Counted from the stretch's first letter, positions 16,825 to 54,304 are shown. The stretch is 64,000 nucleotides of DNA from Deltaproteobacteria bacterium (GCA_023382265.1 JAMCPX010000008.1:84274-148273); one strand, 5' to 3'. Numbers and translations are program-made. The notes: generated from the letters alone by a model not told the origin.

Positions 16825-16825
16825 T

Positions 16826-17089
16826 ATGTCATTTGAGATCATTCACGAAAATAAACCATCATACTCTAAACCGGCAGGTGTTGTAATTGTATTCTTATCC
16901 CTCCTGCTTCTTGTTATGGCTGTTTTTTTTGCTTATCTGTTTATATCGGGCAAGGGTACCGACTATATAATGGGTACTATTCTTGCTTTTGAATTCTTAA
17001 TCTCGGGTATACTGCTGATTCTTTTTGCTAAATATTTTATTTCATTTAGGCACGTGGCAGAAGATCGTAAGGAGGAATTCTTATGGTAG
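16826..17089 (+). CDS. Small two-TM membrane protein (possible accessory subunit of the Rieske/cyt b complex)
   Basis: Is translationally coupled: its ATG 16826 lies directly after the upstream stop, with an AGAGGAG RBS. It is 87 aa with two hydrophobic helices. Confidence 0.5.
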   Translation: MSFEIIHENKPSYSKPAGVVIVFLSLLLLVMAVFFAYLFISGKGTDYIMGTILAFEFLISGILLILFAKYFISFRHVAEDRKEEFLW

Positions 17090-17703: not shown

Positions 17704-17724
17704 AAAAATAATGAGGTAACTGAT

Positions 17725-19996: not shown

Positions 19997-20003
19997 GCAT
20001 TGC

Positions 20004-20093
20004 GGAGAGGTACCGAAGTGGTCATAACGGGCCCGCCTCGAAAGCGGGTATCCTGGGCAACCGGGAACGTGGGTTCGAATCCCACCCTCTCCG
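20004..20093 (+). tRNA. tRNA-Ser (anticodon CGA)
   Basis: A cloverleaf is readable: acceptor GGAGAGG/CCTCTCC, D-arm, anticodon stem CCCGC/GCGGG with loop CUCGAAA (anticodon CGA), a long variable arm (class II), T-arm GTGGG-TTCGAAT-CCCAC and discriminator G. CCA is not encoded. Confidence 0.9.
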
Positions 20094-20237
20094 TTAATGA
20101 GGGATGGCACTGTTTAATCCAAAAAAAGTGCAGCAGGAAAGTTTGCCTTTTAATTTTTCAAATACATTATTCCGGCTGGCTTATTTTTACTTGAATTATC
20201 GGTGTTTTTATTCTATCCTCCTTAAAAGAGGTATTCT

Positions 20238-20663
20238 ATGGCAGAACAGATTTCCGTATTTATAGAAAATATTGCAGGCAGACTGAAAGAGATTACCGCT
20301 TTACTGAAAAATGCTAACATTGATATAAAGGCTATAACAATAGCGGATGCGCCGGATTTTGGGGTTGTGAGGATGATCGTTGATAACACAAAAAAGGCAT
20401 TGAGTCTGCTCAGAAGCGCAAAGTTTATAACAAGAACAACGGACGTTGTTGCAGTAAAGATCGAAAACAAGCCGGGCAGCCTGTTCAATGTGCTGAAAGT
20501 GCTTGAAAAATCGAACATCGATATAGAGTATCTTTACTCTTATACTGCAAGCCCACGTGAACATGCCATTCTCGTGTTCCGGTTTGATAATAATGAATCT
20601 GCCCAAAAGGCACTGTCGAATTCACAAATATCGATTTTATCTACAGAAGAACTGTTAAAATAA
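20238..20663 (+). CDS. Tandem ACT-domain protein
   Basis: Has two ~70 aa ACT-like repeats (..VFIENIAGRL..; ..VKIENKPGSLFNVLKVL..). Confidence 0.7.
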   Translation: MAEQISVFIENIAGRLKEITALLKNANIDIKAITIADAPDFGVVRMIVDNTKKALSLLRSAKFITRTTDVVAVKIENKPGSLFNVLKVLEKSNIDIEYLYSYTASPREHAILVFRFDNNESAQKALSNSQISILSTEELLK

Positions 20664-20734
20664 AAAGAGGAGGACTCTATGAAAAAATCCTTTCAAGATC
20701 GGGTCAGAGATCCTGAACCGGCAGGAAGCGTATT

Positions 20735-21565
20735 ATGACTACAAACAAAGAGGGCATGATAAAATCCAAAGACGGTACAGAGATATTTTACAAATACATA
20801 CTTACGGATAAGCCAAAGGCGTCCGTTTTCATTGTCCACGGACTTGGAGAGCACCTCGGCAGGTATGATAACGTAACAAACACACTGAAAGAGTATAACC
20901 TTTTCCTCCTGGATCTCAGGGGCCACGGCAAGTCTGGAGGCAAAAGGGGGCATGCTATGCGTTTTGATGAGTACCTCGATGATGTGGATGCACTCAGGAA
21001 CGAGGTGAAGGGGCTTGTCCAGGGGAAAACATTCATTCTTGGCCACAGTATGGGAGGGCTCATCGTTTTGCGGTATGCCATCTACAGGCCGGAAGGCATT
21101 TCAGGCGTTGTATCTTCGGGACCGCTGCTCGGGGTAAACGTGAAGGTACCGAAGATTAAAGATGTGATCGGCAGGCTTGTCGCCAATCTTGCTCCGGGCC
21201 TGTCCATGAGCAACGAGATAGATACGAGTAAACTGTCTCACGATAAGGCTGTGGTCGATGCATACAACAACGACCCCCTTGTCCATGCAAAGGTCAGTGC
21301 ACGATGGTATGTTGAAATGGTAAAGGCAATGGAGGATACAAACGCGAATGCAGGCAGATTGTCCATACCGTGCCTGATACTGCATGGCAGTGCCGATGCG
21401 CTCACAAACCCTGGATCGTCAAAGGAGTTTTTTGAAAAGGCCGGTTCCAAAGACAAAACGTACAAACTGTACGAGGGTTATTATCACGAGGTATATAACG
21501 AAGTCGAAAAGCAGAAGCCGCTTTCCGATATGGCGGAATGGCTGAACAAGAGAGCCCAGGAGTAA
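20735..21565 (+). CDS. Alpha/beta hydrolase, lysophospholipase/monoacylglycerol-lipase family
   Basis: Has HGLGEHLGRY and a GHSMGG nucleophile elbow, and is about 276 aa. GC is higher than in the flanking DNA. Confidence 0.8.
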   Translation: MTTNKEGMIKSKDGTEIFYKYILTDKPKASVFIVHGLGEHLGRYDNVTNTLKEYNLFLLDLRGHGKSGGKRGHAMRFDEYLDDVDALRNEVKGLVQGKTFILGHSMGGLIVLRYAIYRPEGISGVVSSGPLLGVNVKVPKIKDVIGRLVANLAPGLSMSNEIDTSKLSHDKAVVDAYNNDPLVHAKVSARWYVEMVKAMEDTNANAGRLSIPCLILHGSADALTNPGSSKEFFEKAGSKDKTYKLYEGYYHEVYNEVEKQKPLSDMAEWLNKRAQE

Positions 21566-21567
21566 CC

Positions 21568-23133
21568 ATGTACAAATACAAAACCATTAAAGAACTGATA
21601 TCTGGTCAGGCAAAAGCAAAGCCGGACAAGGTATTCATGTATTATAAGGATATGACAAAAACCCTGCGGGAGCTCGATGATATATCGAATAGAATAGGCA
21701 ATGGCTTGCTTTCGCTCGGCGTTAAAAAGGGTGACAGGGTAACAATGCTTATACCGAACAGGCCCGAGTTTATCTATGCATGGTTCTCATTGATGAAGAC
21801 AGGGGCTGTTATGGTACCGATCAATATCCAGTTCAAACCGGACGAAATAAAATACATTATCAATAATTCCGAAGCCGGCACGCTTATAACGACCGGTGCA
21901 TTCCAGGATACGGTCACAAAGATACGGGGCGAACTGCCGCAGCTGCAGCATATCATCGTCATCGATCCAAAAGATAAGACAGGCATAATTCCCTTTGAAG
22001 ATGTAGTATCGGCGAATCCGTCTGAGCCGGCCGTTGCTGTCGGTGAGTATGATTATGCATCATTCATCTATACCTCGGGCACCACGGGTTATCCCAAGGG
22101 AGTGATAGATACAAACCGCAATTACATCGCGAATGCCCACCAGATTGCCGAGGCCGCTGATTTTACCGAGAAAGACAGGGCTATGCTCATACTGCCATTG
22201 TTCCACTGCAATGCACAGGTCGTTACCGTGCTTGCACCGATGTACGCAGGTGCAAGTTTTGTTCTGATGGAAGGGTTCTCTCCAAAGGATTTTCTGCCGG
22301 CAATCGATAAGTACAGGCCCTCGACATTCAGCGGGGTGCCGACTGTCTATGCAATTCTAAACAGTCTGCCCGATGCCGGGAAGTACGACCTTTCCTCCCT
22401 GAGGTTTGTTATATGCGGAGCGGCGCCCATGCCGGTCGAGGTATTCAACACGTTCGAGGAAAAGTACAAGGCGTTTATACTCGAAGGCTACGGTCTTTCA
22501 GAGGCAACCTGTGCCAGCATCATTAACCCGTTAAAGGGTAAGAGGAAAATAGGCTCTATCGGCAAGCCTCTCAACGGCCAGGATGCAAGGATCCTCGATG
22601 AAAACAACAAAGAACTGCCGCAGGGACAGATTGGAGAGATCTGCATCAAGGGCGATGTGGTCATGGCAGGTTATTACAAAAACCCCGAGGCAACGGCAGC
22701 CACGATAAAGGACGGATGGCTGCATACCGGTGATCTCGGTTACATGGACGAGGAAGGATACATCTACATCATAGGCAGAAAAAAAGAGATGATCATACGC
22801 GGCGGGGAAAACATCTATCCCAAAGAGATAGAAGAGGTTTTGTACAAGTATCAGAAAGTACAGGATGCGGCTGTCGTCGGCATACCTGATCCCAAATGGG
22901 GAGAAGAGGTGTTCGGGTTTATAGTGCCGAAACAGGGCATGCAAATAGCAGAGCAGGATCTTGTGGACTTTTTAAAAGAAAAGATAGCCAATTACAAGAT
23001 ACCGAAGAAGTTTGTTATTACGGATGCCTTTCCCAAGACAGCAACAGGCAAGATACAAAAGAATAAGATCATCGGGCAGTATGCACAAGAACACGGGATC
23101 GATCTTTCAAAGAAGTTTGCCGCAAAAAAATAA
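21568..23133 (+). CDS. Long-chain fatty acid-CoA ligase (AMP-binding enzyme, FadD-like)
   Basis: Has the AMP-binding motif I (SFIYTSGTTGYPKGV), motif II (GYGLSE) and the C-terminal lysine region. The start was set at ATG 21568, which follows an AGGAG RBS. Confidence 0.85.
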   Translation: MYKYKTIKELISGQAKAKPDKVFMYYKDMTKTLRELDDISNRIGNGLLSLGVKKGDRVTMLIPNRPEFIYAWFSLMKTGAVMVPINIQFKPDEIKYIINNSEAGTLITTGAFQDTVTKIRGELPQLQHIIVIDPKDKTGIIPFEDVVSANPSEPAVAVGEYDYASFIYTSGTTGYPKGVIDTNRNYIANAHQIAEAADFTEKDRAMLILPLFHCNAQVVTVLAPMYAGASFVLMEGFSPKDFLPAIDKYRPSTFSGVPTVYAILNSLPDAGKYDLSSLRFVICGAAPMPVEVFNTFEEKYKAFILEGYGLSEATCASIINPLKGKRKIGSIGKPLNGQDARILDENNKELPQGQIGEICIKGDVVMAGYYKNPEATAATIKDGWLHTGDLGYMDEEGYIYIIGRKKEMIIRGGENIYPKEIEEVLYKYQKVQDAAVVGIPDPKWGEEVFGFIVPKQGMQIAEQDLVDFLKEKIANYKIPKKFVITDAFPKTATGKIQKNKIIGQYAQEHGIDLSKKFAAKK

Positions 23134-23177
23134 GCATACAGCTACTTTCAATACGCAAGAGAAAATTGAGAAGTAAG

Positions 23178-23828
23178 ATGTCGTGGAATAAGGATTATGA
23201 AAAGTCGGGTAGGATATGGGGAGAAAATCCAGGAGAACTTGCAAAAGCCGCAGTCCGATATCTGAAAAAAAACAAGTCCGCCAGCGAAAGCCTTAATCTT
23301 CTGGACATTGGTTGCGGCTACGGAAGGGACGCATTCTATCTTTCGGACAATCTTCAATGCAATACTCTTGGAATAGATGTCTCGGAAAAGGCAACAGAGA
23401 TTGCAATGAGTACGGTCATAAAAACAAAAAAAAACAATATCATGTTTCAATCCATTGATTTTGCATCACTGGGAGGAGACAAATATGATATTGTGTTTGC
23501 CTCGAACGTATATCAGATCCTGCATCCGCATGAAAGGGAGGCATTCAGGGTTGCGGCAAAAAAAGCATTAAGGCCGGAAGGTCTGCTGTTCCTTGCTACC
23601 CTTTCCACAAGGGATCCAGAGCATTACGGTAAAGGCATGAAGGTTGAAGGAGAAGAAAACTCTTTTAAAGACGAGAAGTACCTCCATTTTTGTACGAAGG
23701 AAGAGCTCATGCAAGACTTCGGATTTCTGAACATAAAAGAGCTCTATGAGCAGCAGTACACCGAGCCCCGCTCAACCGGAGAAACCCACCACCACGTATC
23801 ATGGATACTGATAGGGTTTGCATCTTAA
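23178..23828 (+). CDS. Class I SAM-dependent methyltransferase
   Basis: Has motif I (LDIGCGYGRDAF) and later motifs. The ORF-track start at 23166 is a TTG, so ATG 23178 is preferred. Confidence 0.7.
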   Translation: MSWNKDYEKSGRIWGENPGELAKAAVRYLKKNKSASESLNLLDIGCGYGRDAFYLSDNLQCNTLGIDVSEKATEIAMSTVIKTKKNNIMFQSIDFASLGGDKYDIVFASNVYQILHPHEREAFRVAAKKALRPEGLLFLATLSTRDPEHYGKGMKVEGEENSFKDEKYLHFCTKEELMQDFGFLNIKELYEQQYTEPRSTGETHHHVSWILIGFAS

Positions 23829-24943: not shown

Positions 24944-26344
24944 TTACACGCAGCAGGAAAGCCCGGATATGTCCTTGACAAACGAGAGAGCGCAGGTCTT
25001 GATCGCCTCTGAAAGTGTTGGGAATACGGGCGTTGAGTCGATCACATCGTAGATAGTGTTCTTGTTCTTTATAAGTATCATAGCCTGTGCAATCAGTTCG
25101 CCTGCATTGGGTGCGAGTATGTGGACACCGAGGATCTGGCCTGACTTCGGATGAACAGCCATCTTGATCAAACCTTCTGTTCTATTGAGGATAATCGCCT
25201 TGGGAATATTCTTTAACTCAACGCTTCTGCATGCACAGGTGTTCATCCTGTTCATCTGCTCCTGTTCTATAAGCCCCGCACCTGCAAGCTGCGGATCGGT
25301 AAAGATGGTATACGGCACGGCATCGTAATCCATCGTGAGCTTTGAGCCTGCCAATGCATTCTCAGCGGCAATACTGCCTTCCCTGCCGGCTGTTGTCTCA
25401 AGTCTGGATGGCTGGTTTATCACATCCCCAGCTGCAAACACATTTTCATTCTTTGTTGTGAGATATTGATTCACGATAACCGCATGACGCCTGTCTGTTT
25501 CGACGCCTGATTTATCAAGATCAAGGTCTTTTGTGTTTGGTGTCTTGCCGGTTGCAAGCAGTATCTCGTCACCGCTGACCTCATATTCTGTTTTGTCAAT
25601 ACGATACATTACGACCTTCTTCTTGCCCTTTTTGTATGCCCTTTTCACCTTTGCGCGGGTTTTCATTGTTATGCCTTCTTCTGTAAGCAATGATTCAAGC
25701 CTGTTGACGACCTCTTCTTCACCGGGCTGGAATATCGATGGTTGAAATTCGAGGATCGTTACCTTCGAGCCAAAGCGTGCATACATCTGGGCAAACTCAA
25801 GTCCGAGAGGGCCCGCGCCGACAATGATCAATTCCAATGGCAACACCTTTAACTTCAGGGCCCTTGTGTGTGTGATAAACCCTGTCTCTTTTATACCTTC
25901 TATAGGCGGGACGCTCGCGGTAGAGCCTGTCGCTATAATGATCTTTTTTGCACGGAAGGTTTTACCATCAGCCCTGACCTCGTCTTTTGACGTAAAAGAT
26001 GCCCTTCCCTGAAGAACGGTTACATGCTCGAGACGCTTCAGCACCTTGTCATACTTTTCTTTCCGCATGATCGCAACAAGGTCCAGCTCATGCTGGATGA
26101 CCTCCTTAAAATCAAAGGATTTCACGTTAAGCTCAATCCCCGGAATACCATGATGCCGTGCAAGATGCAATAATTCGCCTGCATACAGCAGTGCCTTCGA
26201 AGGCACGCAGCCGACATTTACACACGTGCCGCCGAGCGGCATACCGTCGTTTATCATGAGCGTTTTAGCATTAAGCTCATTTGCCCTGATTGCCGCTGCA
26301 AAACCGCCTGCACCCGCGCCTATTACAATTAAATCATAATCCAT
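24944..26344 (-). CDS. merA: Mercuric reductase MerA (core enzyme, no N-terminal HMA/NmerA domain)
   Basis: Has an FAD-binding N-terminus, the redox-active GGTCVNVGCVPSK motif, and a C-terminal ...KDISGLSCCV carrying the MerA-specific vicinal Cys pair. It lies in a higher-GC segment. Confidence 0.8.
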   Translation of the reverse strand: MDYDLIVIGAGAGGFAAAIRANELNAKTLMINDGMPLGGTCVNVGCVPSKALLYAGELLHLARHHGIPGIELNVKSFDFKEVIQHELDLVAIMRKEKYDKVLKRLEHVTVLQGRASFTSKDEVRADGKTFRAKKIIIATGSTASVPPIEGIKETGFITHTRALKLKVLPLELIIVGAGPLGLEFAQMYARFGSKVTILEFQPSIFQPGEEEVVNRLESLLTEEGITMKTRAKVKRAYKKGKKKVVMYRIDKTEYEVSGDEILLATGKTPNTKDLDLDKSGVETDRRHAVIVNQYLTTKNENVFAAGDVINQPSRLETTAGREGSIAAENALAGSKLTMDYDAVPYTIFTDPQLAGAGLIEQEQMNRMNTCACRSVELKNIPKAIILNRTEGLIKMAVHPKSGQILGVHILAPNAGELIAQAMILIKNKNTIYDVIDSTPVFPTLSEAIKTCALSFVKDISGLSCCV

Positions 26345-36946: not shown

Positions 36947-38269
36947 TTGCAAAAGCTGCAAGTAAATTTTATACTGCCGCCGATGGATAGAAAGCTCTTA
37001 AATGAATACGATAAGCCTGCGAAAGAGCATTATTACATACTTTTCTTGAGCTGGGCAGGCTGGGTGTTTGACTTTTATGATCTTACACTCTACACTTTTC
37101 TCCTTATACCAATAGGTAAAGAACTTCACCTGACCAACATGCATCTTTCTTATATACTCGGCATTTCATTAGCTGCTACGGCCATCGGCGGTATACTATT
37201 TGGAGTACTTGCCGATTATTTCGGCAGGCGCAGCGTTTTGCAATGGACTATCATTACTTACAGTATCGGTACATTCTTGAGCGGTCTTGCACCGGATTTT
37301 AATTTCTTGATATTATTTAGAATAATTACCGGTATCGGTGTTGGCGGAGAATGGGCAACGGGTCAAACTTATGTGGGGGAGACGTTCCCGCCTAATGTAA
37401 GGGGCAGATTTGGGGCATTCATGCAGACAGGTGCACCGGTAGGTGTAGCTCTTGCAGCACTTGTTGGAGGGTTCTTATCTCCATTGATAGGCTGGCGTGC
37501 CTCATTTATGATTTCTGTACTCCCCGCCGTGCTTGTTATCATAATAAGAAGAAAGCTGCCCGAATCTGACTTATGGGAAGAACGCAAACGTTTGATAAGT
37601 TTAAATCAAGTATCATCGCAGGTTATAAAAGAGGAGACCGGCAATAACTTTTTAGAGCTGTTTTCCAAAAAATATGTTGGCATGTTTATAAAGGCGCTCC
37701 TGCTCGGCATATTCCTTATGTCTGCTTACTGGTTTACGTACTCATGGTTACCCGGTTACCTTTATGAACAAAGACATTTTTCAATTACGAAATCGGGTTT
37801 GTGGATGATCATTACACAAACAGGCGGTTTTATAGGTTATGGCACTTTTGGCTTTGTAGCCGACAGGCTGGGTAGAAGACCCGCGTTTACAATATACGCA
37901 TTTTTGATGGCAGCAGGACTTGTTATGATAACATTGATGTGGAGTTTTATTGCCAGTTATCCTTACATAATTCTTGTATTCATGTTTATGGTAGGTTTTG
38001 GTACTGGATTTTTTAGCGGCTATGGCCCGCTTATGTCGGAATTATTCCCTACAAAAATCCGGAACACAGCCATGGGAACTGCATTTAATCTTGCGCGGGG
38101 AATCCAGTTCTTCACACCAGTTATAATTGTTATTGTGTCAAGGTATTATGGGCTTGGCGGCGGGATATCTATTGCTGCACTTTTCGCCATACTCGTAGGA
38201 TTATGGGTATGGGTATTCCCGGAGACGAAAGGTAAAAAACTTACAGCGTTAACCCAAAAAATGGAATAG
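36947..38269 (+). CDS. MFS transporter
   Basis: Has 12 predicted TM helices and the MFS signature GRR-like motif (FGVLADYFGRRSV). Confidence 0.85.
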   Translation: MQKLQVNFILPPMDRKLLNEYDKPAKEHYYILFLSWAGWVFDFYDLTLYTFLLIPIGKELHLTNMHLSYILGISLAATAIGGILFGVLADYFGRRSVLQWTIITYSIGTFLSGLAPDFNFLILFRIITGIGVGGEWATGQTYVGETFPPNVRGRFGAFMQTGAPVGVALAALVGGFLSPLIGWRASFMISVLPAVLVIIIRRKLPESDLWEERKRLISLNQVSSQVIKEETGNNFLELFSKKYVGMFIKALLLGIFLMSAYWFTYSWLPGYLYEQRHFSITKSGLWMIITQTGGFIGYGTFGFVADRLGRRPAFTIYAFLMAAGLVMITLMWSFIASYPYIILVFMFMVGFGTGFFSGYGPLMSELFPTKIRNTAMGTAFNLARGIQFFTPVIIVIVSRYYGLGGGISIAALFAILVGLWVWVFPETKGKKLTALTQKME

Positions 38270-38275: not shown

Positions 38276-39073
38276 ATGTTTACCTTTCTACAAGCCTCTC
38301 CCAATGACGGGTCGTCTGCGGAACAGCACACAATACCTCCACAGGCCATTCATAAGTTCGCGGTCGTAATACCGGTCTATAATCATGAATCCAGGCTCAG
38401 GGCTGTCGTTGAAAGCGCCATGAGCCTCCGCCTGCCGGTCTATGTCATAGATGACGGCTCAACGGACGCAACTCCAGGCATCCTGAAATCCATCCCTGGT
38501 ATAACGGTCATCAGTCATTCTACAAATCTCGGGAAAGGCGCAGCCCTCATGACCGGTTTCACGGAAGCTGCAAGGACGGCGGATTTCGCTATCACGATAG
38601 ACGCAGATGGCCAGCATGACCCGGCAGACGCCGTTCATCTTATGGCCCCTTTGCAATCCGGTATCCATGCGATTGTTATCGGCAGGCGGGAAAACATGCT
38701 GAACGATACGAGAATAAAATGGACCAGCCGCTTTGGAAGAAAATTTTCGAACTTCTGGGTGCGTATGTCCGGAGGGCCCGTGCTGTCGGACACACAGAGC
38801 GGGTTCCGCATATATCCAATCCATGAAATACTGGGCATTAAGTCGGTGTCCAGACGGTTCCAATTTGAGGTGGAAATAGTTGTGCTTGCGCATTGGAAGA
38901 GCATACCGATCGTTGAGGTCCCGGTCAAAGTGCTGTATCCATCAAAACAAGACCGTATATCCCATTTCCGTCCCTTCGTTGATTTCTGGAGGAATGCAGG
39001 GACGTTTACCATGCTGATTGCCATGAGGATCCTTTTGCCGTTGAAGTTGAGGCGGAGGCTGATACAAAAATGA
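38276..39073 (+). CDS. Family 2 glycosyltransferase (polyprenyl-phosphate sugar transferase, DPM1/ArnC-like)
   Basis: The FAVVIPVYNHE...IDDGSTD motif is the GT-A DxD region. A C-terminal amphipathic TM tail is present. This is the first gene of the higher-GC block. Confidence 0.85.
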   Translation: MFTFLQASPNDGSSAEQHTIPPQAIHKFAVVIPVYNHESRLRAVVESAMSLRLPVYVIDDGSTDATPGILKSIPGITVISHSTNLGKGAALMTGFTEAARTADFAITIDADGQHDPADAVHLMAPLQSGIHAIVIGRRENMLNDTRIKWTSRFGRKFSNFWVRMSGGPVLSDTQSGFRIYPIHEILGIKSVSRRFQFEVEIVVLAHWKSIPIVEVPVKVLYPSKQDRISHFRPFVDFWRNAGTFTMLIAMRILLPLKLRRRLIQK

Positions 39074-42000
39074 ACGGGCAATCATCCTTGATCAGATGGA
39101 AGGCCGTTGTCGTGGTCATACTTGCGTTTACAGTTTTATATATAGCCGGGGTGCACGGCCTCACGATAGAAACCGATATAACAGCAAGCCTGCCCAAAAA
39201 TGATCCGGTCATTGCGGATGCCCGGTACGTTATCACCCATTATCCTGTATTTGACCGTGTTTTCATCGACATTGGTGTGACCAAGCAACATACGGATGAC
39301 GGGCTTCTTATGACCGCTGCAACATATATGCAGCAGGGGCTGCGTGCAAGCGGACTATTTAAAGAGGTGGGATTAGGCACATCGGTCGATGCCATGCCGC
39401 TCCTCTTGTCACATATAGTCTCCAACCTCCCGTCGATGTTTTCCCTGAAGGAACTGGAGACCTCGGTCCTCCCGTTATTGGGCAGCGCTTCGCTCCGATC
39501 TCTCATGGATCGAAACATGGATATCCTGCAGGGGCTTGAGGGTATGGGCCAGTCCGGTTTGATCGCCCGAGATCCCCTGGGACTCAGGAACATTGTACTG
39601 GCACGTATGGCATCACTCCTGCCTGTTCACGGTGCCACCATTAACAATAACTTTATTATGAGCAGGGACAGAAGGCACATCCTTATCATCGCAGAGCCAA
39701 AACAATCCTCGACAGATACTAACTTTGCATTGAAAATAAATGCACTTATAAACAAGCTGATCGCCGAAATAGATCAAAAAGCCGGAGGAGCACAACAACA
39801 AATCTCAATCACACCGATCGGCTCATACCGTGCGGCTATCGACAATGAAACCATTGCCAGAAGGGATACGATGCGTGCACTGCTCCTCTCTACGATTGGG
39901 ATCGCACTGCTTCTTTTGATCAGTTTCCCCAGATGGTATATAGGACTTATGGCACTTGTCCCGGCCCTGGCCGGGACAAGTGCGGCACTCTTTGTTATGT
40001 CGCTCCTCAGGCATAATTTATCCATTCTTGCCATCGGCTTCGGCGGGGCCATTATCTCTATCAATGTTGATTACGGTATTGCATATCTTCTGTTTCTCGA
40101 TCAGGCGCAAACAACCTCCGGAACCTACGCATCAAGGCAGTCGTTCTGGGTTGGGCTTGGAGCGTCTCTAACCACAGTGGGCTCGTTTCTTGCATTGAGT
40201 TTCAGCGGGTTTCCAATCCTTGCCGAGATAGGCTGGTTTACCGCCATGGGCACACTCTTTTCTTTTGCATTTGTCCATACGATATTCCCGCTGGTTTTCC
40301 GCAGGGTATCCCCTGCCAGGCACCGCGGCATTATGCCCATGGAAAAGATCACGAGCCGCCTGGTACTATCGAGTGGATGGACCGCGTTTATTGTGGCAGG
40401 TATCTTCGGACTGGTTATGGCATTTTTTGCCAGGCCCGCGGTAAAAGCCGATGTGGAGGCCATGAACACGGAGAGTGCGGCTACGCATATTGCGGAAAGT
40501 AATGTAAAGAAAACATGGGGAGACATACTATCGGACACCACGTACATCCTTATCCAGGGAAGTTCTGTTAAATCGCTGCAGGACCGTGCAGACAGGCTTG
40601 ATACCTTTATCAGGGCTCGTATGGCATCCGGTGTTGTCCGCTCCGGGTTTTCGCCATTGTCTATTTTTCCCGGTGAGGCCCTGGCTCGGAAGAACGAGGC
40701 CGCGTGGAAAGCCTTCTGGACAACACAGCGGGTTCAATCCCTGCGCGGTAAAATCGCACATGTTTCAAAGCTTGTCGGTTTTTCCCATAATGCCTTTGAG
40801 CCGTTTTTTGAGAAACTCATGGTCCGCAGAGCTTATGATACAGCTATTCCCCGGCAACTTTACGGGATGCTCGGCATATCAAGGGGCTGGGACAACAATA
40901 CATGGATGATGATAAGTGCCGTGCGGCCTGGACCGTACTATAATCCGGAGATATTCTATAAGAATCTTTCCGGAGCAGGCATAGGTAAAATGCTTGATGC
41001 CCATTGGTTCACCGTACGGTTATCAAATCTGCTTTTCACTATGTTCGTTAGAATGGGCATACTGTGCGGAGTAGGTCTTGTCGTGGTTCTGGTGTTTTAT
41101 TTTATGGATTTTATACTGGTAATACTTGCATTGGTCCCGGTTGCATTTGCCCTGGTGAGTACCTTCGCGACATACCATTTTCTGCATCGACCCCTGGACA
41201 TTCCGAGTCTGTTGCTGGTTGTGGTCGTGTTCGGTATGGGAAGCGATTATTCCATCTATTTCATCGGGGCATATCAGCGTTATTTTGATGAACACGACCC
41301 TGCCATGAGTCCCATACGTACCGCGGTCTTCCTCAATGCAGGTTCCACCATTACCGGCCTCGGCGTTCTGGCATTTGCAGGACAGGCCATGCTGAAGAGT
41401 GCTGGACTGAGCATGGTGCTCGGGCTTGGCTATGCCCTTATCGGAACAGTTACACTTCTGCCGCCGATACTGAGGGTTCTTTACGCACCAAGGAAAAAAG
41501 GAATTATGCCGGCGGTTGCAGCGGGCTCTCCTGAACATAGAGCAAGGGTATTGTCCTCGTATAGATACATGGAGACATACGTCAGGATGTTTGCCAGGTT
41601 CAAGATCAAGTTTGACCCGATGTTTTCACAGCTCGCGGATTTTGTCGGGCCCAAGGATAAGGTTATGGATCTCGGATGCGGGTACGGCGTTCCTTCTGCG
41701 TGGCTGATGCATCTTTACCCTTCCGTGTATTTGTTCGGTGTGGATCCGAATCAAGACCGTGTGCGGGTCGCGCGGAGAGCATTGGGTGATCGCGGGACCG
41801 CTGTCCATGGCGAGGCGCCTGATTTCCCGAAGCCTCCGCATGCATGCGATGCAGTCCTCATGCTCGACATAATCCATTATCTTTCCGATGAGGAATTTGC
41901 GCAAACACTTGCATCCTCGTCTTCCTGTCTTAAGCCCGGGGGATCCGTGGTGATCAGGGCGACAGTCCCTTCATCAAAACATGTGCCGTGGGAACGGTGG

Positions 42001-42180
42001 CTGGAGCAGAGCAGGCTCACACTCAGGGGGCAAAAATATTATTTCAGGACCAGCGAAAGTATCGTTCAGATTATCTCAAAGGCCGGTTTCACCCTGACAT
42101 ATTCCGGCGATTCTGCGAAGGGAAGAGAGGAGACCTGGTTCGTCTGCATGACAGTGGAGCACAGCCAAGAGCCGCTATGA
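39070..42180 (+). CDS. MMPL/RND-superfamily exporter (COG4258-like) fused to C-terminal class I SAM-dependent methyltransferase
   Basis: Has two 5-6 TM bundles, each preceded by a large periplasmic loop (the MMPL topology). The C-terminal ~190 aa has MTase motifs I (VMDLGCGYG), II (DAVLMLDIIHYL) and III (LKPGGSVVI). Confidence 0.8.
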   Translation: MNGQSSLIRWKAVVVVILAFTVLYIAGVHGLTIETDITASLPKNDPVIADARYVITHYPVFDRVFIDIGVTKQHTDDGLLMTAATYMQQGLRASGLFKEVGLGTSVDAMPLLLSHIVSNLPSMFSLKELETSVLPLLGSASLRSLMDRNMDILQGLEGMGQSGLIARDPLGLRNIVLARMASLLPVHGATINNNFIMSRDRRHILIIAEPKQSSTDTNFALKINALINKLIAEIDQKAGGAQQQISITPIGSYRAAIDNETIARRDTMRALLLSTIGIALLLLISFPRWYIGLMALVPALAGTSAALFVMSLLRHNLSILAIGFGGAIISINVDYGIAYLLFLDQAQTTSGTYASRQSFWVGLGASLTTVGSFLALSFSGFPILAEIGWFTAMGTLFSFAFVHTIFPLVFRRVSPARHRGIMPMEKITSRLVLSSGWTAFIVAGIFGLVMAFFARPAVKADVEAMNTESAATHIAESNVKKTWGDILSDTTYILIQGSSVKSLQDRADRLDTFIRARMASGVVRSGFSPLSIFPGEALARKNEAAWKAFWTTQRVQSLRGKIAHVSKLVGFSHNAFEPFFEKLMVRRAYDTAIPRQLYGMLGISRGWDNNTWMMISAVRPGPYYNPEIFYKNLSGAGIGKMLDAHWFTVRLSNLLFTMFVRMGILCGVGLVVVLVFYFMDFILVILALVPVAFALVSTFATYHFLHRPLDIPSLLLVVVVFGMGSDYSIYFIGAYQRYFDEHDPAMSPIRTAVFLNAGSTITGLGVLAFAGQAMLKSAGLSMVLGLGYALIGTVTLLPPILRVLYAPRKKGIMPAVAAGSPEHRARVLSSYRYMETYVRMFARFKIKFDPMFSQLADFVGPKDKVMDLGCGYGVPSAWLMHLYPSVYLFGVDPNQDRVRVARRALGDRGTAVHGEAPDFPKPPHACDAVLMLDIIHYLSDEEFAQTLASSSSCLKPGGSVVIRATVPSSKHVPWERWLEQSRLTLRGQKYYFRTSESIVQIISKAGFTLTYSGDSAKGREETWFVCMTVEHSQEPL

Positions 42181-43073
42181 AAGGTCTGTTCTACAGGTGC
42201 ATATCTTTCCTGTCCCGTATCTTCGGGCTCTGGATCGTCTCAGCATCCGCATGGATAATTGTTACCGCCTACTTTATTCTTATGCCAGGAAGGACAGCCA
42301 ACAGTGTCAGATTCTACCGTGCATTATATCCCGGGAGAAATGTCTTTTACCACGTATGGTGCGCATGGAGGCAGTATCACCATTTCTCAACGGTTTTTGT
42401 AGACAGGCTTATATTCGAGAAAGAGGAAGGGCTGAACTGGGTCGGTGAGGGATTGGACCATCTTTCCTCAGCAGCAAAAAGAGGTGAATACGGCATACTG
42501 CTCACGTCGCATTTTGGAAATTGGGAGGCAGCGGCACGCGGGCTCCAGACACTGGACTTTAAGATCCTTTTGTATATGGGGTCGCGGCAATATGAACAGA
42601 TCGAGGCACAGATCAAAAAAGACCTCGCAGACCACGGGATCACCATCATAGCTGTACCCAAAGACGCCGGTACACAATTTGAAGGACTCGCAGGCCTGCG
42701 TTTCCTGAGGAACGACGGGTTTGTTGCCATGGCCGGAGACCTTTTATGGAATAATGAGGAAAAATCCATCAAGGTTAAATTTCTCGGCCATGATGTTTTC
42801 CTGCCGCAGGCACCGTATGTCTTTGCCCTTGTCCTTGAAGCACCTATCTTCGTGTTTTTTGTCATGCGGACCGGGAGGGCGAAGTACAGGATCGTTGCCC
42901 ATCCGCCGATCTATGTAAAAGCTGGATCTCGGGAGCATCGCGAAGCAGCAATACAGAATGCGGCACAACAGTACGTATCGTTACTGGAACAGACCGTACG
43001 GCAGTACCCTGATCATTGGTACCACTTTACACCTATGTGGATTGATGGTACGGATAGTCAAAACATAGGTTAG
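42177..43073 (+). CDS. Lysophospholipid/lipid A-type acyltransferase (LPLAT, LpxL/HtrB-like)
   Basis: Has an N-terminal TM helix and HFGNWE, the H(X)4(D/E) acyltransferase motif. The start ATG 42177 overlaps the upstream stop (ATGA); the ORF-track 41988 start is an overlap artefact. Confidence 0.8.
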   Translation: MKGLFYRCISFLSRIFGLWIVSASAWIIVTAYFILMPGRTANSVRFYRALYPGRNVFYHVWCAWRQYHHFSTVFVDRLIFEKEEGLNWVGEGLDHLSSAAKRGEYGILLTSHFGNWEAAARGLQTLDFKILLYMGSRQYEQIEAQIKKDLADHGITIIAVPKDAGTQFEGLAGLRFLRNDGFVAMAGDLLWNNEEKSIKVKFLGHDVFLPQAPYVFALVLEAPIFVFFVMRTGRAKYRIVAHPPIYVKAGSREHREAAIQNAAQQYVSLLEQTVRQYPDHWYHFTPMWIDGTDSQNIG

Positions 43074-43411
43074 AAAACCGTTCTTCCCGGCTTTAGTAGT
43101 TCGTCTGTAACGATTATTCCGGAACCGTCTACCCTGACTATAAAGAATGTATCTAAAACGACTATTTTTACATTTACCATTTAGCGTATGTTCTTTTGGA
43201 AGATTTGAAATATGATCTTGATCATCAAGATAACCTTCTCGTCCTGCAGAAACAAGCCCATGATCGTATTGATCAATGCATTGCCTTTTGTGGTTATGGA
43301 ATCTCAATTCTTCATCCGTCAGTCCCACTCGATTTCACTCTTCCGTTAAACGGTTCCTACTGGACTTTTGCAGATGATAGTGCTATCATTACAATTCAAG
43401 GAGGTATTTGT

Positions 43412-44442: not shown

Positions 44443-45336
44443 GTGGTTATTCTCTTTACCATATTGTTTGTTTTTTTATTTCCTTCAAATGCCTTCTGCT
44501 GGGGACCCATTACTCATATTGATTTTGCAGTGGAGGTTTTAAATCTTTCACAATATGTTGCGCCGAGAATTGCAGAACTTATAATGACATTTCCCTATGA
44601 TTATCTTTACGGCAACATAGGGGCGGACATTGTTATAGGTAAAAATTTTACGGAGTATGAGTATCACTGTCATAACTGGCTTATAGGTTTTCAGGTACTG
44701 AAATCAGCCCGGAGTAATCATCAAAAGGCATTTGCTTATGGATATATAAGTCACCTTGCAGCAGATGTAATAGCGCATAACTATTTTGTCCCGAATAAGA
44801 TCATTACGAGCTACAGGAAAAAGCTTTTACCTCATCCCTACTGGGAAATCAGGTTTGAAAAAATGATAGACGAATCCTCTGCAAACATTATTGGTAAAAC
44901 ATTTAAGCAAAGGCATGTAGATGATAACGACCTGCTAAAGGCAACACTTGAAAAAACGCTATTCTCATTTTCTACAAATAAAAGGCTGTTCAATGGATTG
45001 ATGTTTATGACAAGAAAAAAGTTTTTACGAGGGATATTCCATAGTCTAACATCAGACAAAAAATGGGGCTTCACAAAAGAGGAATTCCGGGAGTATAAGC
45101 TTTATTCTTTGGATGCCGTTTTTGATGTACTTATAAACATAGATAAATCTATCTACACAAGATTTGATCCAACAGGCAATGAGTTAATAAATGCGAGTAT
45201 TGGTATTCGCAAGCAATTAAACCGTTTGCATAAAAGAGGTATGCTTACAGATCCTCTAAAACAGGAATTAACAAAGACGATCATTCCGCACCTCCAGCCT
45301 GGTATATATTCCCTCCATGAAGCACATATAAAATAA
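44443..45336 (+). CDS. Zinc-dependent phospholipase C / P1-nuclease superfamily protein
   Basis: Has a signal peptide followed by the CWGPITH motif. The mature N-terminal Trp plus His is the zinc-ligand pattern of this superfamily. Confidence 0.55.
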   Translation: MVILFTILFVFLFPSNAFCWGPITHIDFAVEVLNLSQYVAPRIAELIMTFPYDYLYGNIGADIVIGKNFTEYEYHCHNWLIGFQVLKSARSNHQKAFAYGYISHLAADVIAHNYFVPNKIITSYRKKLLPHPYWEIRFEKMIDESSANIIGKTFKQRHVDDNDLLKATLEKTLFSFSTNKRLFNGLMFMTRKKFLRGIFHSLTSDKKWGFTKEEFREYKLYSLDAVFDVLINIDKSIYTRFDPTGNELINASIGIRKQLNRLHKRGMLTDPLKQELTKTIIPHLQPGIYSLHEAHIK

Positions 45337-50116: not shown

Positions 50117-51118
50117 ATGAAAGTTGCGTTTGATGCTTTTGGAACCGACGGCTCTCCAGATACTGAGATAAAAGCGGTTAATGAGGCAATAAAACAGGGT
50201 ATCGAAGTAATACTCGTAGGAGATAAAGAAAAACTTGCATCCGTGGACTCACGGATAGAGATCGTTGATGCAAAAGAGATAATTACTATGGGTGAATCTC
50301 CCTCTCTGGTCATAAGGGGCAAGAAGGATGCTTCAATGCGTGTAGCAATAGAGCTGGTTGCAAAAGGAAGGGCTGATGCAGTGGTAAGCGCAGGGAATTC
50401 GGGGGCTATGATGGCATTATCCATGCTTATCTTAAAAAAATTACCGGGCGTTTACAGACCCGCAATAGCCGGTGTGATGCCGAGTTACAAAGGGCACACC
50501 GTATTTATAGACATGGGTGCGAATGTAGATTGTAAACCCGTTCACCTTGTTCAATTTGCTGTAATGGGCAGTGTTTATGCAGAAAAATTATTCAATATAA
50601 CTAATCCAAACATTGGTTTGCTTAGCAATGGAGAGGAAGACAGCAAGGGGAATGAGTTAACCCATCAAACGCATGAATTGTTAAAGAAAACATCTTTAAA
50701 CTACAAAGGTTACGTTGAAGGTAAAGATATATACACTGGGGATGTGGATGTTATTGTAGCAGATGGGTTTGTGGGGAATACGGTTTTAAAGGCGAGCGAA
50801 GGCGTTGCTGACATGATAACAAAAATGATAAAGGACAGCTATAAAGCATCTCCTATAAGCATACTCGGCTATCTGCTGTCCGTAGGGGCATTTAACAGAC
50901 TGAAAAAACGCATTGATTATGCCGAGTACGGCGGAGCCCCTCTCATAGGCATAAACGGGCTGTCAATAATAAGCCACGGCCGTTCAAATGTAAAAGCACT
51001 TGTCAGCTCACTTGCATTATCAAAAAGATTTTATGAAACAAGGCTCAATTATGCAATAATAGAAGAACTCAATCGCAACACCGCATTACTTAACAATATA
51101 AATGAGGAGAACCTATGA
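50117..51118 (+). CDS. plsX: Phosphate acyltransferase PlsX
   Basis: Has the MKVAFDAFGTDGSP N-terminus and is 333 aa. Confidence 0.95.
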   Translation: MKVAFDAFGTDGSPDTEIKAVNEAIKQGIEVILVGDKEKLASVDSRIEIVDAKEIITMGESPSLVIRGKKDASMRVAIELVAKGRADAVVSAGNSGAMMALSMLILKKLPGVYRPAIAGVMPSYKGHTVFIDMGANVDCKPVHLVQFAVMGSVYAEKLFNITNPNIGLLSNGEEDSKGNELTHQTHELLKKTSLNYKGYVEGKDIYTGDVDVIVADGFVGNTVLKASEGVADMITKMIKDSYKASPISILGYLLSVGAFNRLKKRIDYAEYGGAPLIGINGLSIISHGRSNVKALVSSLALSKRFYETRLNYAIIEELNRNTALLNNINEENL

Positions 51119-52053
51119 AGATTGCATTCATTTTTCCCGGGCAAGGTTCTCAATATGTGGGAATGGGTAAATCACTTTATGATCATTTTGATATTATAAA
51201 AGATTACTATGATAAAGCAGATAAGACACTTGGATATAGCCTGAAAAATCTGATGTTCGAAGGACCTAAAGAAGAATTAACACTAACGTACAATGCGCAA
51301 CCCGCAATACTTACGATGAGTATAGCGGTTCTTGAACTTGTAAAAAGCAAAATAGCTATAGAACCACTGGTGTGTATGGGGCACAGTGTTGGAGAGTACA
51401 GCGCCCTTGTAGCAGCAGGTGCCATAAGCTTTGAAGAGGCTGTTTACGCTGTAAGAAAAAGAGGTGAAGCTATGCAAGCGGCGGTAAAACCTGGTGAAGG
51501 AACAATGGCCGCTATTATAGGAGCTGACGAACTTGCGATAAAACAGTCTTTAACCCAGGCCCAGGCATCTGTAGGCGGGATTGCAGAGATAGCAAATTAT
51601 AATAGCCCTGAACAGATAGTAATTGCGGGTAATGTTATCACTGTTGAAAAAGCTATGAGCCTATTACATGCAAAGGGTGCAAAACTGGTTAAAAAACTTG
51701 AAGTTAGCGCCCCGTTTCATTCAAGCCTTATGTCGCCTGCCGTACCTGTTATGGAAAAAGTATTACAGGATATTAGCTTTAAAAATACAAAATGTCCGGT
51801 CATCTTCAATGTTGATGCGCAGCCCCATTCATTAGCCGAGGATATGTACCCTTTGCTTTTAAAGCAGATTGCGAGTTCCGTAAGATGGACGGATACAATT
51901 TTATACGCAATAAAGCATGGTGTCGACACTTTTATTGAAATGGGACCAGGTAATGTCCTCACAATGCTTGTAAAACGTATCAACCAATCTGTAAAGTTTA
52001 TTAATGTAAACGACGAAACGACACTTGAACGATTATACGCCGCCGTACAATAA
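51115..52053 (+). CDS. fabD: Malonyl-CoA:ACP transacylase FabD
   Basis: Has FIFPGQGSQYVGMG and the GHSVGE active-site serine. Confidence 0.95.
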   Translation: MKIAFIFPGQGSQYVGMGKSLYDHFDIIKDYYDKADKTLGYSLKNLMFEGPKEELTLTYNAQPAILTMSIAVLELVKSKIAIEPLVCMGHSVGEYSALVAAGAISFEEAVYAVRKRGEAMQAAVKPGEGTMAAIIGADELAIKQSLTQAQASVGGIAEIANYNSPEQIVIAGNVITVEKAMSLLHAKGAKLVKKLEVSAPFHSSLMSPAVPVMEKVLQDISFKNTKCPVIFNVDAQPHSLAEDMYPLLLKQIASSVRWTDTILYAIKHGVDTFIEMGPGNVLTMLVKRINQSVKFINVNDETTLERLYAAVQ

Positions 52054-52054
52054 T

Positions 52055-52801
52055 ATGGGATGGGATTTTTCAGATAAAATTGCGGTTGTTACCGGAGGAG
52101 CAAAGGGTATTGGTAGAGCGATAACAGAAAAATTATTGTCGTACAATACTACTGTAATAATTATTTATAATAATTCACAAGAGGATGCCGAGAATGTCTG
52201 TAAAGCTGCAGAAAATGCCGGAAGAAAAGCTTACGCAATCAGGTGTAATGTTACAAATCCTTCAGAGGTCAAAAACGCATTTGAATATATAGAAAAAACC
52301 TTTAAAAAACTCGATTTTCTTATAAACAATGCCGGTATCACAAAAGATAATCTATTAATAAGAATGAAGGATGAAGAATGGCTTGATGTCGTTTCTACAA
52401 ACCTGAACGGCGTTTTTTATTGCACAAGATCAGCGGTTAAGCTTATGTTGAGAAAGAGATACGGCAGAATAATAAACATATCATCTATTGTTGGCATATC
52501 CGGTAATCCGGGTCAGTCAAATTATGCTGCAACAAAAGCCGGGATAATAGGCTTTACAAAGGCCGCAGCAAAAGAGATGGGCGGGAAAAATATACTTGTA
52601 AATGCTATTGCGCCTGGTTATATTGAAACAGATATGGTTTCTGTTATGCCTGAAGAGTTTAAAACCATGATACTCGGGAACATACCTCTGCACAGGTACG
52701 GGACACCTGAAGATGTTGCCGGCTTAGTATGTTTTCTATTATCGGATGATGCCGGTTATATAAATGGTGCTGTTGTAGATATAAACGGTGGTATACTTTA
52801 A
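52055..52801 (+). CDS. fabG: 3-oxoacyl-ACP reductase FabG
   Basis: Has the NADP-binding TGGAKGIG motif, NAG, and the YAATKAG catalytic Y-x3-K. The start was set at ATG 52055, just after the fabD stop. Confidence 0.95.
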
Positions 52802-52827
52802 GAAGTTTAATAAAGGAGGAAACAATT

Positions 52828-53067
52828 ATGTCATTAGAAAAAGCGGTAAGAGAACTTATTGCTGATCGGCTGAAGCTCGATCTAGAACAGGTTCAGGTGA
52901 ATGCAAGATTTATAGAGGATCTCGGGGCAGACTCTCTTGATATCGTCGAGATGATCATGCAGATGGAAGAGCTTTTTGGTGTAACGATCCCGGATGAGGA
53001 TGCAGAGAAAATCAAAACTGTAAATGATGCTATTTCTTATCTAAAAGAAAAGGGAGTGAATGCTTAA
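52828..53067 (+). CDS. acpP: Acyl carrier protein
   Basis: [11 protein letters not shown] is the phosphopantetheine-attachment serine motif, and the ORF is 79 aa. Confidence 0.95.
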
Positions 53068-54304
53068 AAGAAGGGTTGCTATTACAGGTATTGGTACTGT
53101 TAATCCGCTTGGTAATAGTACGAAAGAAAGCTGGTCAGAACTTATCCAGGGAAATGGGGGGATCAATATTGTATCAAGGTTTGATCCGGCAGAGTGCGAA
53201 GCAAAAATTGCCGGCGAGGTAAAAAATTTTAATCCTGAAAATTTTATTGAGAAAAGGGATATTAAAAAAATGTCTCTTTTTATTCAGTATGCAATAGCTT
53301 CTTCTTTAATGGCTTATGAAGACAGCGGTCTTACGAAAGATCATATTGATCCTGAAAGGCTCGGGGTAATTATTGGCAGCGGTATGGGTGGACTTGAAAG
53401 TATTGAGTTCTACCACCGGCTTCTATTGTCGGATGGCCCAAGAAAGGTTTCTCCATTCTTTATACCAATGACGATCGGCAATATGGCAACAGGTTACGTT
53501 GCGATAAAACTTGATGCAAGGGGCCCGAATTTATGTATTACAACTGCATGTACATCCGGTGCTCACTCTGTAGGAGAGGCGTTCAGGTATATACAGAATG
53601 GGCTTGCGGATGTGGTCTTTGCGGGTGGAGCGGAATCAACGATAACACCTCTTGCGTTCGCAGGGTTTACCAATATGAAGGCATTATCAACAAAAAATGA
53701 TAATCCCGAAAAGGCTTCAATGCCGTTTGATAATGAACGCGATGGATTTATTCTGGCAGAGGGCGCAGGAATACTTGTGCTGGAGGAATATGAGCATGCA
53801 AGGTCGAGGAATGCAAGGATCTACGCAGAGATAATTGGATATGGAGCAAATGGAGATGCGTACCATATTACCGCGCCTTCTCCTGAAGGCAAAGGAGCAA
53901 CCGATTGCATGAAGCTTGCAATAAGTAATGCCGGTATAAAGCCGGAAGAGATTGATTACATAAATGCTCACGGCACTTCTACAAAATACAATGACCTTTA
54001 TGAGACAAAGGCAATTAAAACCGTATTCGGTGAGCATGCATATAAATTAGCTGTTAGTTCTACAAAAGGTGCTACCGGACATTTGCTCGGTGCAGCAGGC
54101 GGTGTTGAAGCCATATTTACGGTACTTGCAATTTATCATAAGATTGTCCCGCCTACAATAAACTACTCAACTCCAGATCCGGAATGTGACCTTAACTATG
54201 TCCCAAATAATGCAATAGAAAAGGAAATCAGATTTGCCCTTTCAAACTCTTTTGGTTTTGGCGGGACAAATGGTGTATTATTATTTAAGAGGGTAGAGGA
54301 TTGA
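53060..54304 (+). CDS. fabF: 3-oxoacyl-ACP synthase II FabF
   Basis: Has the active-site Cys (TACTSG), the His-His catalytic residues and is 414 aa. Confidence 0.95.

Follow-up and report, generated by a model that had tools for sequence, protein, structure and literature searches.

A set of three genes that probably forms the part of an aryl-polyene-related lipid cluster concerned with head-group assembly and export is found at positions 38,276-43,073 of a 64,000-nucleotide stretch of DNA from a Deltaproteobacteria bacterium (GCA_023382265.1 JAMCPX010000008.1:84274-148273). The whole stretch is here called the window and the three genes the triad; they encode a family GT2 glycosyltransferase, an exporter of the RND/MMPL type fused to an S-adenosylmethionine (SAM) methyltransferase, and an acyltransferase of the LPLAT superfamily. 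The cluster would be of a kind that also contains B12-radical-SAM genes, and in this genome it appears to be dispersed. Clusters of the aryl polyene (APE) type are among the most widespread lipid and pigment clusters of Gram-negative bacteria, and little is understood of the steps of attachment and export. The first-pass annotation, made from the DNA sequence, had assigned the triad to the accessory set of APE/flexirubin-type clusters. This was largely right, as judged by the homology to ApeJ and ApeM and by the Ape-like neighbours found in related loci. The triad and its parts are as follows.

38276-39073, + strand: GT2 glycosyltransferase gene, 265 amino acids, Pfam Glycos_transf_2
39070-39073, + strand: ATGA start/stop overlap of the GT2 gene and the fusion gene, 4 nucleotides, translational coupling
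39070-42180, + strand: RND/MMPL exporter::SAM methyltransferase fusion gene, 1036 amino acids, MMPL and Methyltransf_25
39070-41484, + strand: RND/MMPL exporter half of the fusion, residues 1-805, 12 transmembrane (TM) helices, two periplasmic domains, relative of ApeM (COG4258/APPE)
41575-42159, + strand: class-I SAM methyltransferase domain of the fusion, C-terminal, residues ~836-1030
42177-42180, + strand: ATGA start/stop overlap of the fusion gene and the acyltransferase gene, 4 nucleotides
42177-43073, + strand: LPLAT-superfamily acyltransferase gene, 298 amino acids, Lip_A_acyltrans fold

The proteins encoded by the triad

Both 4-nucleotide ATGA overlaps described earlier are read at the junctions (39070-39073 and 42177-42180), and the earlier domain calls for all three products agree with Pfam and NCBIfam. 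The overlap between the GT2 and the fusion gene recurs in the gene calls of the related loci L089 and L091, and that between the fusion and the acyltransferase gene in the related locus L006.

The GT2 protein matches Pfam PF00535 (Glycos_transf_2) with 87.6 bits and aligns in BLASTP with residues 8-219 of ApeJ from Escherichia coli CFT073 (34% identity, E 1e-31). The motifs DDGS at position 59 and DAD at position 109 are present. Nothing in the relatives corresponds to its first ~25 codons (38276-38350), and the nucleotide homology to these genomes begins inside the gene, at ~38342-38357. The acyltransferase matches PF03279 (Lip_A_acyltrans) with 61 bits and aligns with residues 365-549 of the same ApeJ (27% identity, E 7e-14 to 2.5e-13), its HFGNWE motif of the HX4E type at residues 112-117 being aligned with H370. 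It had been described as LpxL-like, a label that could not be kept: BLASTP gave E 1.4 against LpxL and no match to LpxM of E. coli K-12, and nothing significant against ApeD. The scores against the models for LpxL-type enzymes are also below the cut-offs (48.6 vs 248 for the best model and 16.5 vs 297.8 for TIGR02207). Judged by these alignments, the N-terminal half of ApeJ is homologous to the GT2 protein, predicted to be of the type that transfers a sugar to a lipid phosphate, and the C-terminal half to the acyltransferase, which is not an LpxL-type enzyme of lipid A synthesis. Since two window genes match its two halves, the GT2::acyltransferase that is one protein in E. coli is here split around the transporter. 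No description of such a split ApeJ was found in the literature searched. Having the two activities of ApeJ as naturally separate genes supports the published model of sugar transfer followed by acylation, and provides simpler proteins.

The best NCBIfam matches of the GT2 protein are AglJ (79.4 vs a cut-off of 325), PpgS (76.3 vs 370) and ArnC (47.3 vs 529), and the acyltransferase has the fold of the late acyltransferases of lipid A. These similarities would fit a polyprenyl-phosphate sugar pathway of the ArnC/GtrB/PpgS kind, in which the GT2 protein makes an undecaprenyl-phosphate-sugar, the RND protein flips or otherwise handles it, and an envelope glycan or lipid A, instead of a dedicated glycophospholipid, is modified by the acyltransferase and the methyltransferase. 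Such a pathway is rather improbable. The scores are far under the equivalog cut-offs of 325-529 bits, and the protein shares only the GT2 superfamily with the polyprenyl-phosphate sugar transferases. ApeJ is matched directly and more strongly, with both enzymes included, neither LpxL nor LpxM shows significant similarity, and the conserved neighbours in related loci are of the fatty-acid/polyketide type rather than glycan genes.

The fusion protein matches MMPL with 38.6 bits (gathering cut-off 20.5) and Methyltransf_25 with 53.4 bits at residues 860-1010, the latter region also being matched by Methyltransf_11/23/12. When compared with ApeM using hhalign, the RND half aligns over 568 columns that include both TM bundles and the periplasmic domains (probability 99.2%, E 9e-20). 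The AlphaFold2 model of the fusion (pLDDT 87, pTM 0.78) displays a 1+5/1+5 TM topology followed by the methyltransferase, and since this domain is C-terminal to the 12-TM RND part it is predicted to be cytoplasmic. The RND half contains the Asp-Tyr pairs D334-Y335 in TM4 and D726-Y727 in TM10; among 120 homologues D334 and Y727 are invariant and D726 is at least 90% conserved. These pairs resemble the proton relay of MmpL3. The methyltransferase domain is preceded by a highly conserved linker, RFKIxxDPMF, and has its SAM motif I, VMDLGCGYG, with an intact SAM-binding GxGxG, at 865-873, where the conservation of D867, G869, and G871 in the same 120 homologues is 90% or more.

The top Foldseek matches of the model are HpnN and MmpL3/4/5, followed by NPC1/Patched, and none of the structural matches listed reaches over the C-terminal methyltransferase domain. 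This nearness in fold to HpnN and MmpL, together with the fact that the top NCBIfam match of the acyltransferase is PatA, an acyltransferase of phosphatidylinositol mannoside (PIM) synthesis, might point to another known lipid-export system, such as hopanoid export by HpnN, a mycobacterial system of the MmpL/PIM type, or modification of ornithine lipids. The likelihood of this is negligible. The fusion is below the cut-offs of both HpnN models, TIGR03480 (57.8 vs 751.85) and NF052374 (16.4 vs 1100), and of the curated models for the MmpL (HAE2) and HAE3 RND families, TIGR00833 (74.8 vs 874.7) and TIGR00921 (73.9 vs 351.9), and PatA gives 53.7 vs 209. No hopanoid genes were seen in any locus examined, and one and the same family profile gives ApeM 90.3 bits, more than twice the 40.3 bits of HpnN, the best of the solved RND proteins.

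The fused architecture is found in 120 of the 120 best database homologues (1012-1044 amino acids), and relatives of the fusion occur in 440 species-level genomes, nearly all of them Desulfobacterota (Syntrophales and Desulfobacterales). A search of the literature on RND/MMPL-methyltransferase fusions, on COG4258 and on aryl polyenes in Desulfobacterota yielded only generic antiSMASH surveys, and the fusion thus appears to have no earlier description in the literature searched. A large family, in mostly anaerobic Desulfobacterota, fuses a methyltransferase to an ApeM-like exporter. The anammox methyltransferase AmxMT1 (PMC9821293) was considered as a model for the fused domain, and was set aside as no specific link was found.

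Conserved neighbourhoods and dispersed partner genes

In all, 80 species-level loci with relatives of the fusion were fetched, and the denominators given below vary with the flank available; neighbours within 10 kb were counted only in the 37 loci having at least 8 kb on both sides. An acyltransferase of the ApeJ C-terminal type lies directly downstream of the fusion in 44/66 loci, and a GT2 gene directly upstream in 30/69. The full order GT2-fusion-LPLAT recurs in 24/61, so the three-gene synteny does extend to the relatives. A gene of the ketosynthase (KS), FabH, acyl carrier protein (ACP) or dehydratase (DH) type is found within 10 kb of the fusion in 33 of the 37 well-flanked loci, and a B12-radical-SAM gene in 24. 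The cluster partners match ApeR (43%), ApeQ (47%), and ApeF (46%), and also ApeH, ApeI, ApeP, ApeK, and ApeL, and in locus L090 the Pfam families of ApeI-like and ApeP-like proteins match directly. An ApeH-like ligase is present in 13 of the 37 loci and was not found in the window. Homologues of ApeG, ApeN, and ApeB were seen in none of the 37, in which the chain-length factor (CLF) was not tallied separately.

Within the clade of the window (66-87% identity) the typical order is a phytoene-desaturase-like (amine) oxidase, GT2, the fusion, LPLAT, a B12-radical-SAM protein, and a deacetylase/methyltransferase. The B12-radical-SAM gene adjoins the LPLAT gene in L089, L091, and L012, and the L089 cluster extends further with genes for a radical-SAM-DUF4070 protein, a ketoreductase (KR), LolA, a KS, and PlsC.

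Two other arrangements may be mentioned. The locus of a 58%-identical relative (L090) has no downstream acyltransferase, and its GT2-fusion pair is placed between two ParE/PhdYeFM toxin-antitoxin pairs (8493-8988 and 13672-14195), a hint that the module is moved or rearranged elsewhere as well. In the distant relatives L004 and L068 (region 3849-9978) the fusion gene is outside any triad and is preceded by an AMP-ligase, a CDP-alcohol phosphatidyltransferase/CarS-like protein, ABC components of the MacB/FtsX type, and a UbiA prenyltransferase. This is a different context for the exporter::methyltransferase, possibly that of an isoprenoid lipid.

A search with the B12-radical-SAM protein of L091 identified a protein with 83% identity (P0246), encoded on contig JAMDBO010000009.1 of the metagenome-assembled genome (MAG) to which the triad also belongs, GCA_023487665.1. 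Its accession numbers, MCL4479474 and MCL5791662, are ~1,400-1,650 from those of the window proteins, MCL4477841 and MCL5793046. The neighbouring gene encodes a NodB-like deacetylase::methyltransferase that is 78% identical to its L091 counterpart, and there are housekeeping genes around the two. The radical-SAM protein (locus L177, 10001-11464) passes TIGR04072 (rSAM_ladder_B12, lipid biosynthesis B12-binding/radical SAM protein) with 381.5 against a cut-off of 360, and it is through this gene on another contig that the genome has a member of the TIGR04072-type clusters. The deacetylase::methyltransferase has a weak match to NodS, and all its scores are below the cut-offs. The GC content at third codon positions (GC3) of the fragment is 0.50-0.53 vs 0.27-0.39 in its flanks, and its best relative is L091, as for the triad. 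Because the next two genes of the cluster are present on another contig of the same MAG, the cluster is split into at least two pieces, and the triad is not the stand-alone system that had been suggested.

The second fragment also displays a strain-level indel: in a related assembly (L176, 13084-17152) three extra genes of 141, 375, and 790 amino acids, all without Pfam match, are found beside the radical-SAM/deacetylase genes, and they are absent from the MAG contig L177.

Composition, origin and surroundings

Both the major facilitator superfamily (MFS) gene upstream and divIVA downstream are found where they had been reported. Three further features of the surroundings are needed in the following.

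36947-38269, + strand: MFS transporter, aromatic-acid/sialate:H+ symporter-like (MFS_1 163 bits; TIGR00895 217 bits, below cut-off)
43074-43411, no strand: downstream boundary, where GC drops to 0.38-0.39 and the nucleotide homology with the relatives' clusters stops
50117-54304, + strand: housekeeping plsX-fabD-fabG-acpP-fabF operon, host-like GC, context only

The triad had been reported as richer in GC than its flanks, and this is confirmed by windowed GC: the triad has 0.506 vs 0.391 for the rest of the window, and a 300-nucleotide profile steps up at ~38.2-38.35 kb and down at ~43.0-43.15 kb, that is, at the ends of the triad. In the three genes GC3 is 0.55-0.58, the 52 other open reading frames (ORFs) of the window averaging 0.366 (sd 0.07), and it exceeds that of the 10 genes within +/-10 kb by 0.19 (z ~10). 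The excess of the fusion gene over its flanks is on average +0.05 (sd 0.05) in 53 other loci, and the +0.19 of the window is the largest of the 54. The closest relatives' copies have GC3 ~0.56, in genomes of similar GC3. Nucleotide homology to the relatives is limited to ~38.34-43.06 kb.

The stop codon of the MFS gene is 6 nucleotides from the GT2 start. The MFS gene has a host-like GC of 0.42; it is a resident gene that probably also supplies the triad promoter by co-transcription. The MFS protein is unusually conserved, with 67-72% identity across several phyla. In sister genomes that share the MFS gene (77-83% identity) it is closely followed not by a triad but by a gene for a polytopic membrane protein of ~750 amino acids that has a large C-terminal domain and matches no Pfam family (L093 11330-13576, L094 11282-13543, L095 11506-13731). 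The window does not have this protein and has the triad in its place, and in one sister genome the triad is on a different contig. No clean empty site was obtainable from the sister genomes because their loci share only the MFS gene while the other flanks differ. Neither promoter nor terminator scans gave counts above those in shuffled sequence, and no convincing terminator was seen downstream of the triad. Remnants of a B12-radical-SAM gene are absent from 43074-43411, as are remnants of this gene and of the amine oxidase from the borders of the triad, and tblastn with the relatives' proteins was negative for them across the window.

Compared to L091, dN/dS of the triad is 0.11-0.17 and dS ~0.5-1.2. 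The low dN/dS indicates that the genes are maintained by selection, and any transfer is not from the exact L091 lineage, or not very recent. Since both fragments are GC-rich and closest to the same relative, it is likely, though not proven, that the triad was imported from within its own broad lineage, from a member of higher GC, and that dispersal followed. The suggestion of horizontal acquisition therefore holds as far as the GC3 excess and the non-conserved flanks go, and falls short of proof. For the genome in question the finding is modest: the triad would be an intact, imported and dispersed fragment of a widespread cluster, not a new stand-alone system.

An imported look could also be produced by a chimeric join of two populations during assembly, or the triad could be a decaying relic of a lost cluster. 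The source is a MAG, the cluster is fragmented, and there are several GC-rich patches with best matches from a mid-GC population. Artefact and decay are nevertheless very improbable. Three assemblies, the NCBI MAG and two Logan runs, give an identical triad with identical flanks, and because several independent assemblies show the same arrangement a chimera is unlikely; each protein also has two NCBI accessions with parallel offsets, which suggests two deposited MAGs. The cluster members are on contigs of 159-226 kb, and the junction is in an operon-like arrangement with the 6-nucleotide spacer. Full-length ORFs, intact motifs and the dN/dS values speak against a relic.

Other GC-rich patches are found at 20.7-23.8 kb and 24.9-26.3 kb. 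The former, just downstream of the only tRNA gene of the window, tRNA-Ser(cga) at 20003-20094, lies in a region (20003-23828) encoding a Hydrolase_4 lysophospholipase-like protein, a FadD-like long-chain fatty-acid-CoA ligase, and a CMAS-like methyltransferase (GC3 0.46-0.57). Sister genomes keep the order ACT-hydrolase-ligase with genes that are not GC-rich, while the window copies resemble a mid-GC population (L096), which suggests allele replacement by recombination. FadD-like ligases at a generic level of 31-36% identity are present in ~20 of the relatives' clusters. The patch was considered as a further fragment of the cluster and rejected, as the fusion gene is near relatives of the ligase in 0/80 loci and the order is conserved in the sisters. 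The second patch is a gene for a pyridine-nucleotide-disulfide oxidoreductase at 24944-26344 (GC 0.48, GC3 0.53, richer than its neighbours), and is possibly another imported segment.

Several points weigh against the triad being an imported part of an aryl-polyene-related cluster. Because of these other GC-rich patches, composition alone is no proof of transfer, some of the GC excess belongs to the gene family itself, and neither direct repeats, mobility genes nor an adjacent tRNA gene flank the triad. The fused methyltransferase is not specifically ApeB-like: hhalign aligns it only with residues 174-337 of ApeB, a generic Rossmann core (88.9%, E 2e-6), and it has no BLASTP match to ApeB. Substrate, product and methyltransferase role are for the whole fusion family predictions from the genes. 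Some of the KS genes counted within 10 kb in the relatives may be housekeeping fabF. A core was also missed: tblastn with the relatives' proteins located no dedicated Ape-type KS/ACP/DH/KR core in the 64-kb window, where no CLF, acyltransferase of the ApeD (PlsC) type, ApeG, or LolA/ApeN-like carrier was found either. The source of the specialised acyl chain in this organism is for that reason putative.

It had been stated that the window holds no KS, ACP or dehydratase genes. As regards an Ape-type core this stands, while for KS and ACP in general it does not, as housekeeping fabG-acpP-fabF genes are present in the operon at 50117-54304. PlsX, FabD, FabG, ACP, and FabF all score above their NCBIfam equivalog cut-offs, and the Ape-like core proteins matched only fabG-acpP-fabF at 52-54.3 kb in tblastn. 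This operon is a possible source of acyl-ACP outside the imported module. The triad could then work by itself, decorating ordinary phospholipids with acyl groups from the housekeeping type II fatty acid synthase (FASII) and exporting an acylated, methylated glycophospholipid, with no polyketide-like core involved. The missing core, the position of the fab operon 7-11 kb downstream, the intact state of the triad under purifying selection, and the ~4 of the 37 well-flanked loci that also have no core gene within 10 kb all agree with this. It is still unlikely, as further genes of the conserved cluster are found elsewhere in the same MAG, so that genes missing from the window cannot be taken as missing from the genome, and as the fusion is beside core-type genes in 33 of the 37 relatives. 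A part of a dispersed, aryl-polyene-related cluster thus remains the preferred reading of the triad.

The window spans the region of the chromosomal origin, with mnmG at 2249-4147 (-), mnmE at 7486-8877 (-), dnaA at 9207-10574 (+), and dnaN at 10769-11866 (+). The cumulative GC skew has its minimum at ~9 kb, the GC of dnaA/dnaN is 0.28-0.32, and the triad is ~30 kb from the origin and co-oriented with replication. A gene for a Zn-dependent phospholipase C (Zn_dep_PLPC, 44443-45336) of host-like GC, a further enzyme acting on membrane lipids, is found ~1.4 kb 3' of the triad, with divIVA and two small genes in between. Near the origin, a gene for a PIF1-like helicase that ends in a WYL domain (5888-7450) separates mnmE from a peroxiredoxin gene, and 16117-19753 encodes a respiratory-type, bc-complex-like set comprising a multihaem cytochrome c, a Rieske protein, cytochrome b, and a cytochrome c7-like protein.

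Proposed pathway and known systems

In the model for aryl polyene lipids, ApeD acylates a lysophospholipid and ApeJ adds N-acetylgalactosamine to the lipid phosphate before using the ACP-bound polyene to acylate this sugar; the methylation step belongs to ApeB and the export step to ApeM (Grammbitter et al., 2020, doi 10.1101/2020.12.19.423268; Johnston et al., 2021, PMC8253772). A pathway for the triad can be drawn by homology and analogy with this published one. The GT2 protein, corresponding to the N-terminal half of ApeJ, would transfer a hexosamine-type sugar to the phosphate of a membrane lipid, and the acyltransferase, corresponding to the C-terminal half, would esterify the sugar with a specialised ACP-bound acyl chain. 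The fused cytoplasmic methyltransferase would methylate the lipid or the acyl head at the cytoplasmic face of the transporter, and the ApeM-like RND half, driven by protons, would carry the finished lipid out of the inner membrane and on towards the outer one. Removal of the N-acetyl group and methylation of the amino sugar could be the work of the NodB-like deacetylase::methyltransferase from the other contig. Substrates, reaction order, direction of transport, and the role of the methyltransferase are here all inferred by analogy.

A more speculative and rather doubtful extension is that modification takes place on exit. The methyltransferase would cap the lipid while it is loaded into the RND part, so that only the methylated product is exported, and the Desulfobacterota family would make outer-membrane lipids that are anchored by a sugar phosphate, tailored by radical-SAM enzymes and related to aryl polyenes, from which they would differ chemically. 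If this is true, the head-group and export part can move and be kept at a locus of its own, as the genome of the window shows.

When set beside the APE clusters of E. coli CFT073 and Xenorhabdus doucetiae, the triad is similar in the two ApeJ halves, the ApeM-type RND protein, the SAM methyltransferase domain, and the Ape homologues of its relatives. It differs in that ApeJ, one protein of 558 amino acids in E. coli, is encoded by two genes flanking the transporter, and in that a methyltransferase unlike ApeB is fused to the C-terminus of the transporter. In the relatives' clusters there are also genes for B12-radical-SAM, phytoene-desaturase-like, and deacetylase proteins, which the E. coli ape cluster does not have. 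The APE core consists of KS (apeO/R), ACP (apeE/F), CLF (apeC), DH (apeI/P), KR (apeQ), and the transporter apeM (Grammbitter et al., 2020). An ApeM-type transporter and the ApeJ-type glycosyl/acyltransferase are present in the window, and since no dedicated KS/CLF/ACP/DH genes are co-located it does not in itself hold an APE cluster. An aryl starter and an aryl-headed polyene product would here be hypothetical.

Some systems are similar in single components. HpnN and MmpL3/4/5 have the same fold and 12-TM topology as the RND half, with sequence scores far below the family cut-offs. PatA is an LpxL-fold enzyme acylating a sugar on a glycophospholipid, the type of reaction that the window acyltransferase might carry out, while the score is well under the cut-off and the triad is without PIM pathway context. 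The enzymes tailoring Nod factors (the GT2 enzyme NodC, the deacetylase NodB, the methyltransferase NodS, and the acyltransferase NodA) are of the same classes as those of the dispersed cluster; their acceptor is a chito-oligosaccharide whereas here it is probably a lipid, and the scores are below the cut-offs.

At the level of the cluster the best match is the atypical FASII clusters, called ladderane-like, of Kuenenia stuttgartiensis, Desulfotalea psychrophila, and Geobacter (Rattray et al., 2009, PMC2649909), set beside the triad by the kinds of genes described. Those clusters contain radical-SAM/B12 enzymes, a phytoene-dehydrogenase-like oxidase, a glycosyltransferase, a polysaccharide-deacetylase-like protein, and SAM methyltransferases, together with FabF paralogues, a CoA ligase, and an Mmp-like membrane protein, and polyunsaturated hydrocarbons have been reported in D. 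psychrophila (PMC2649909). The gene kinds are the same as in the clade of the window, a likeness judged from the description, and the radical-SAM protein of the window's own genome passes TIGR04072; an exporter::methyltransferase fusion is not described in that paper. The fusion family is in this way tied to B12-radical-SAM clusters of the ladderane-like FASII type.

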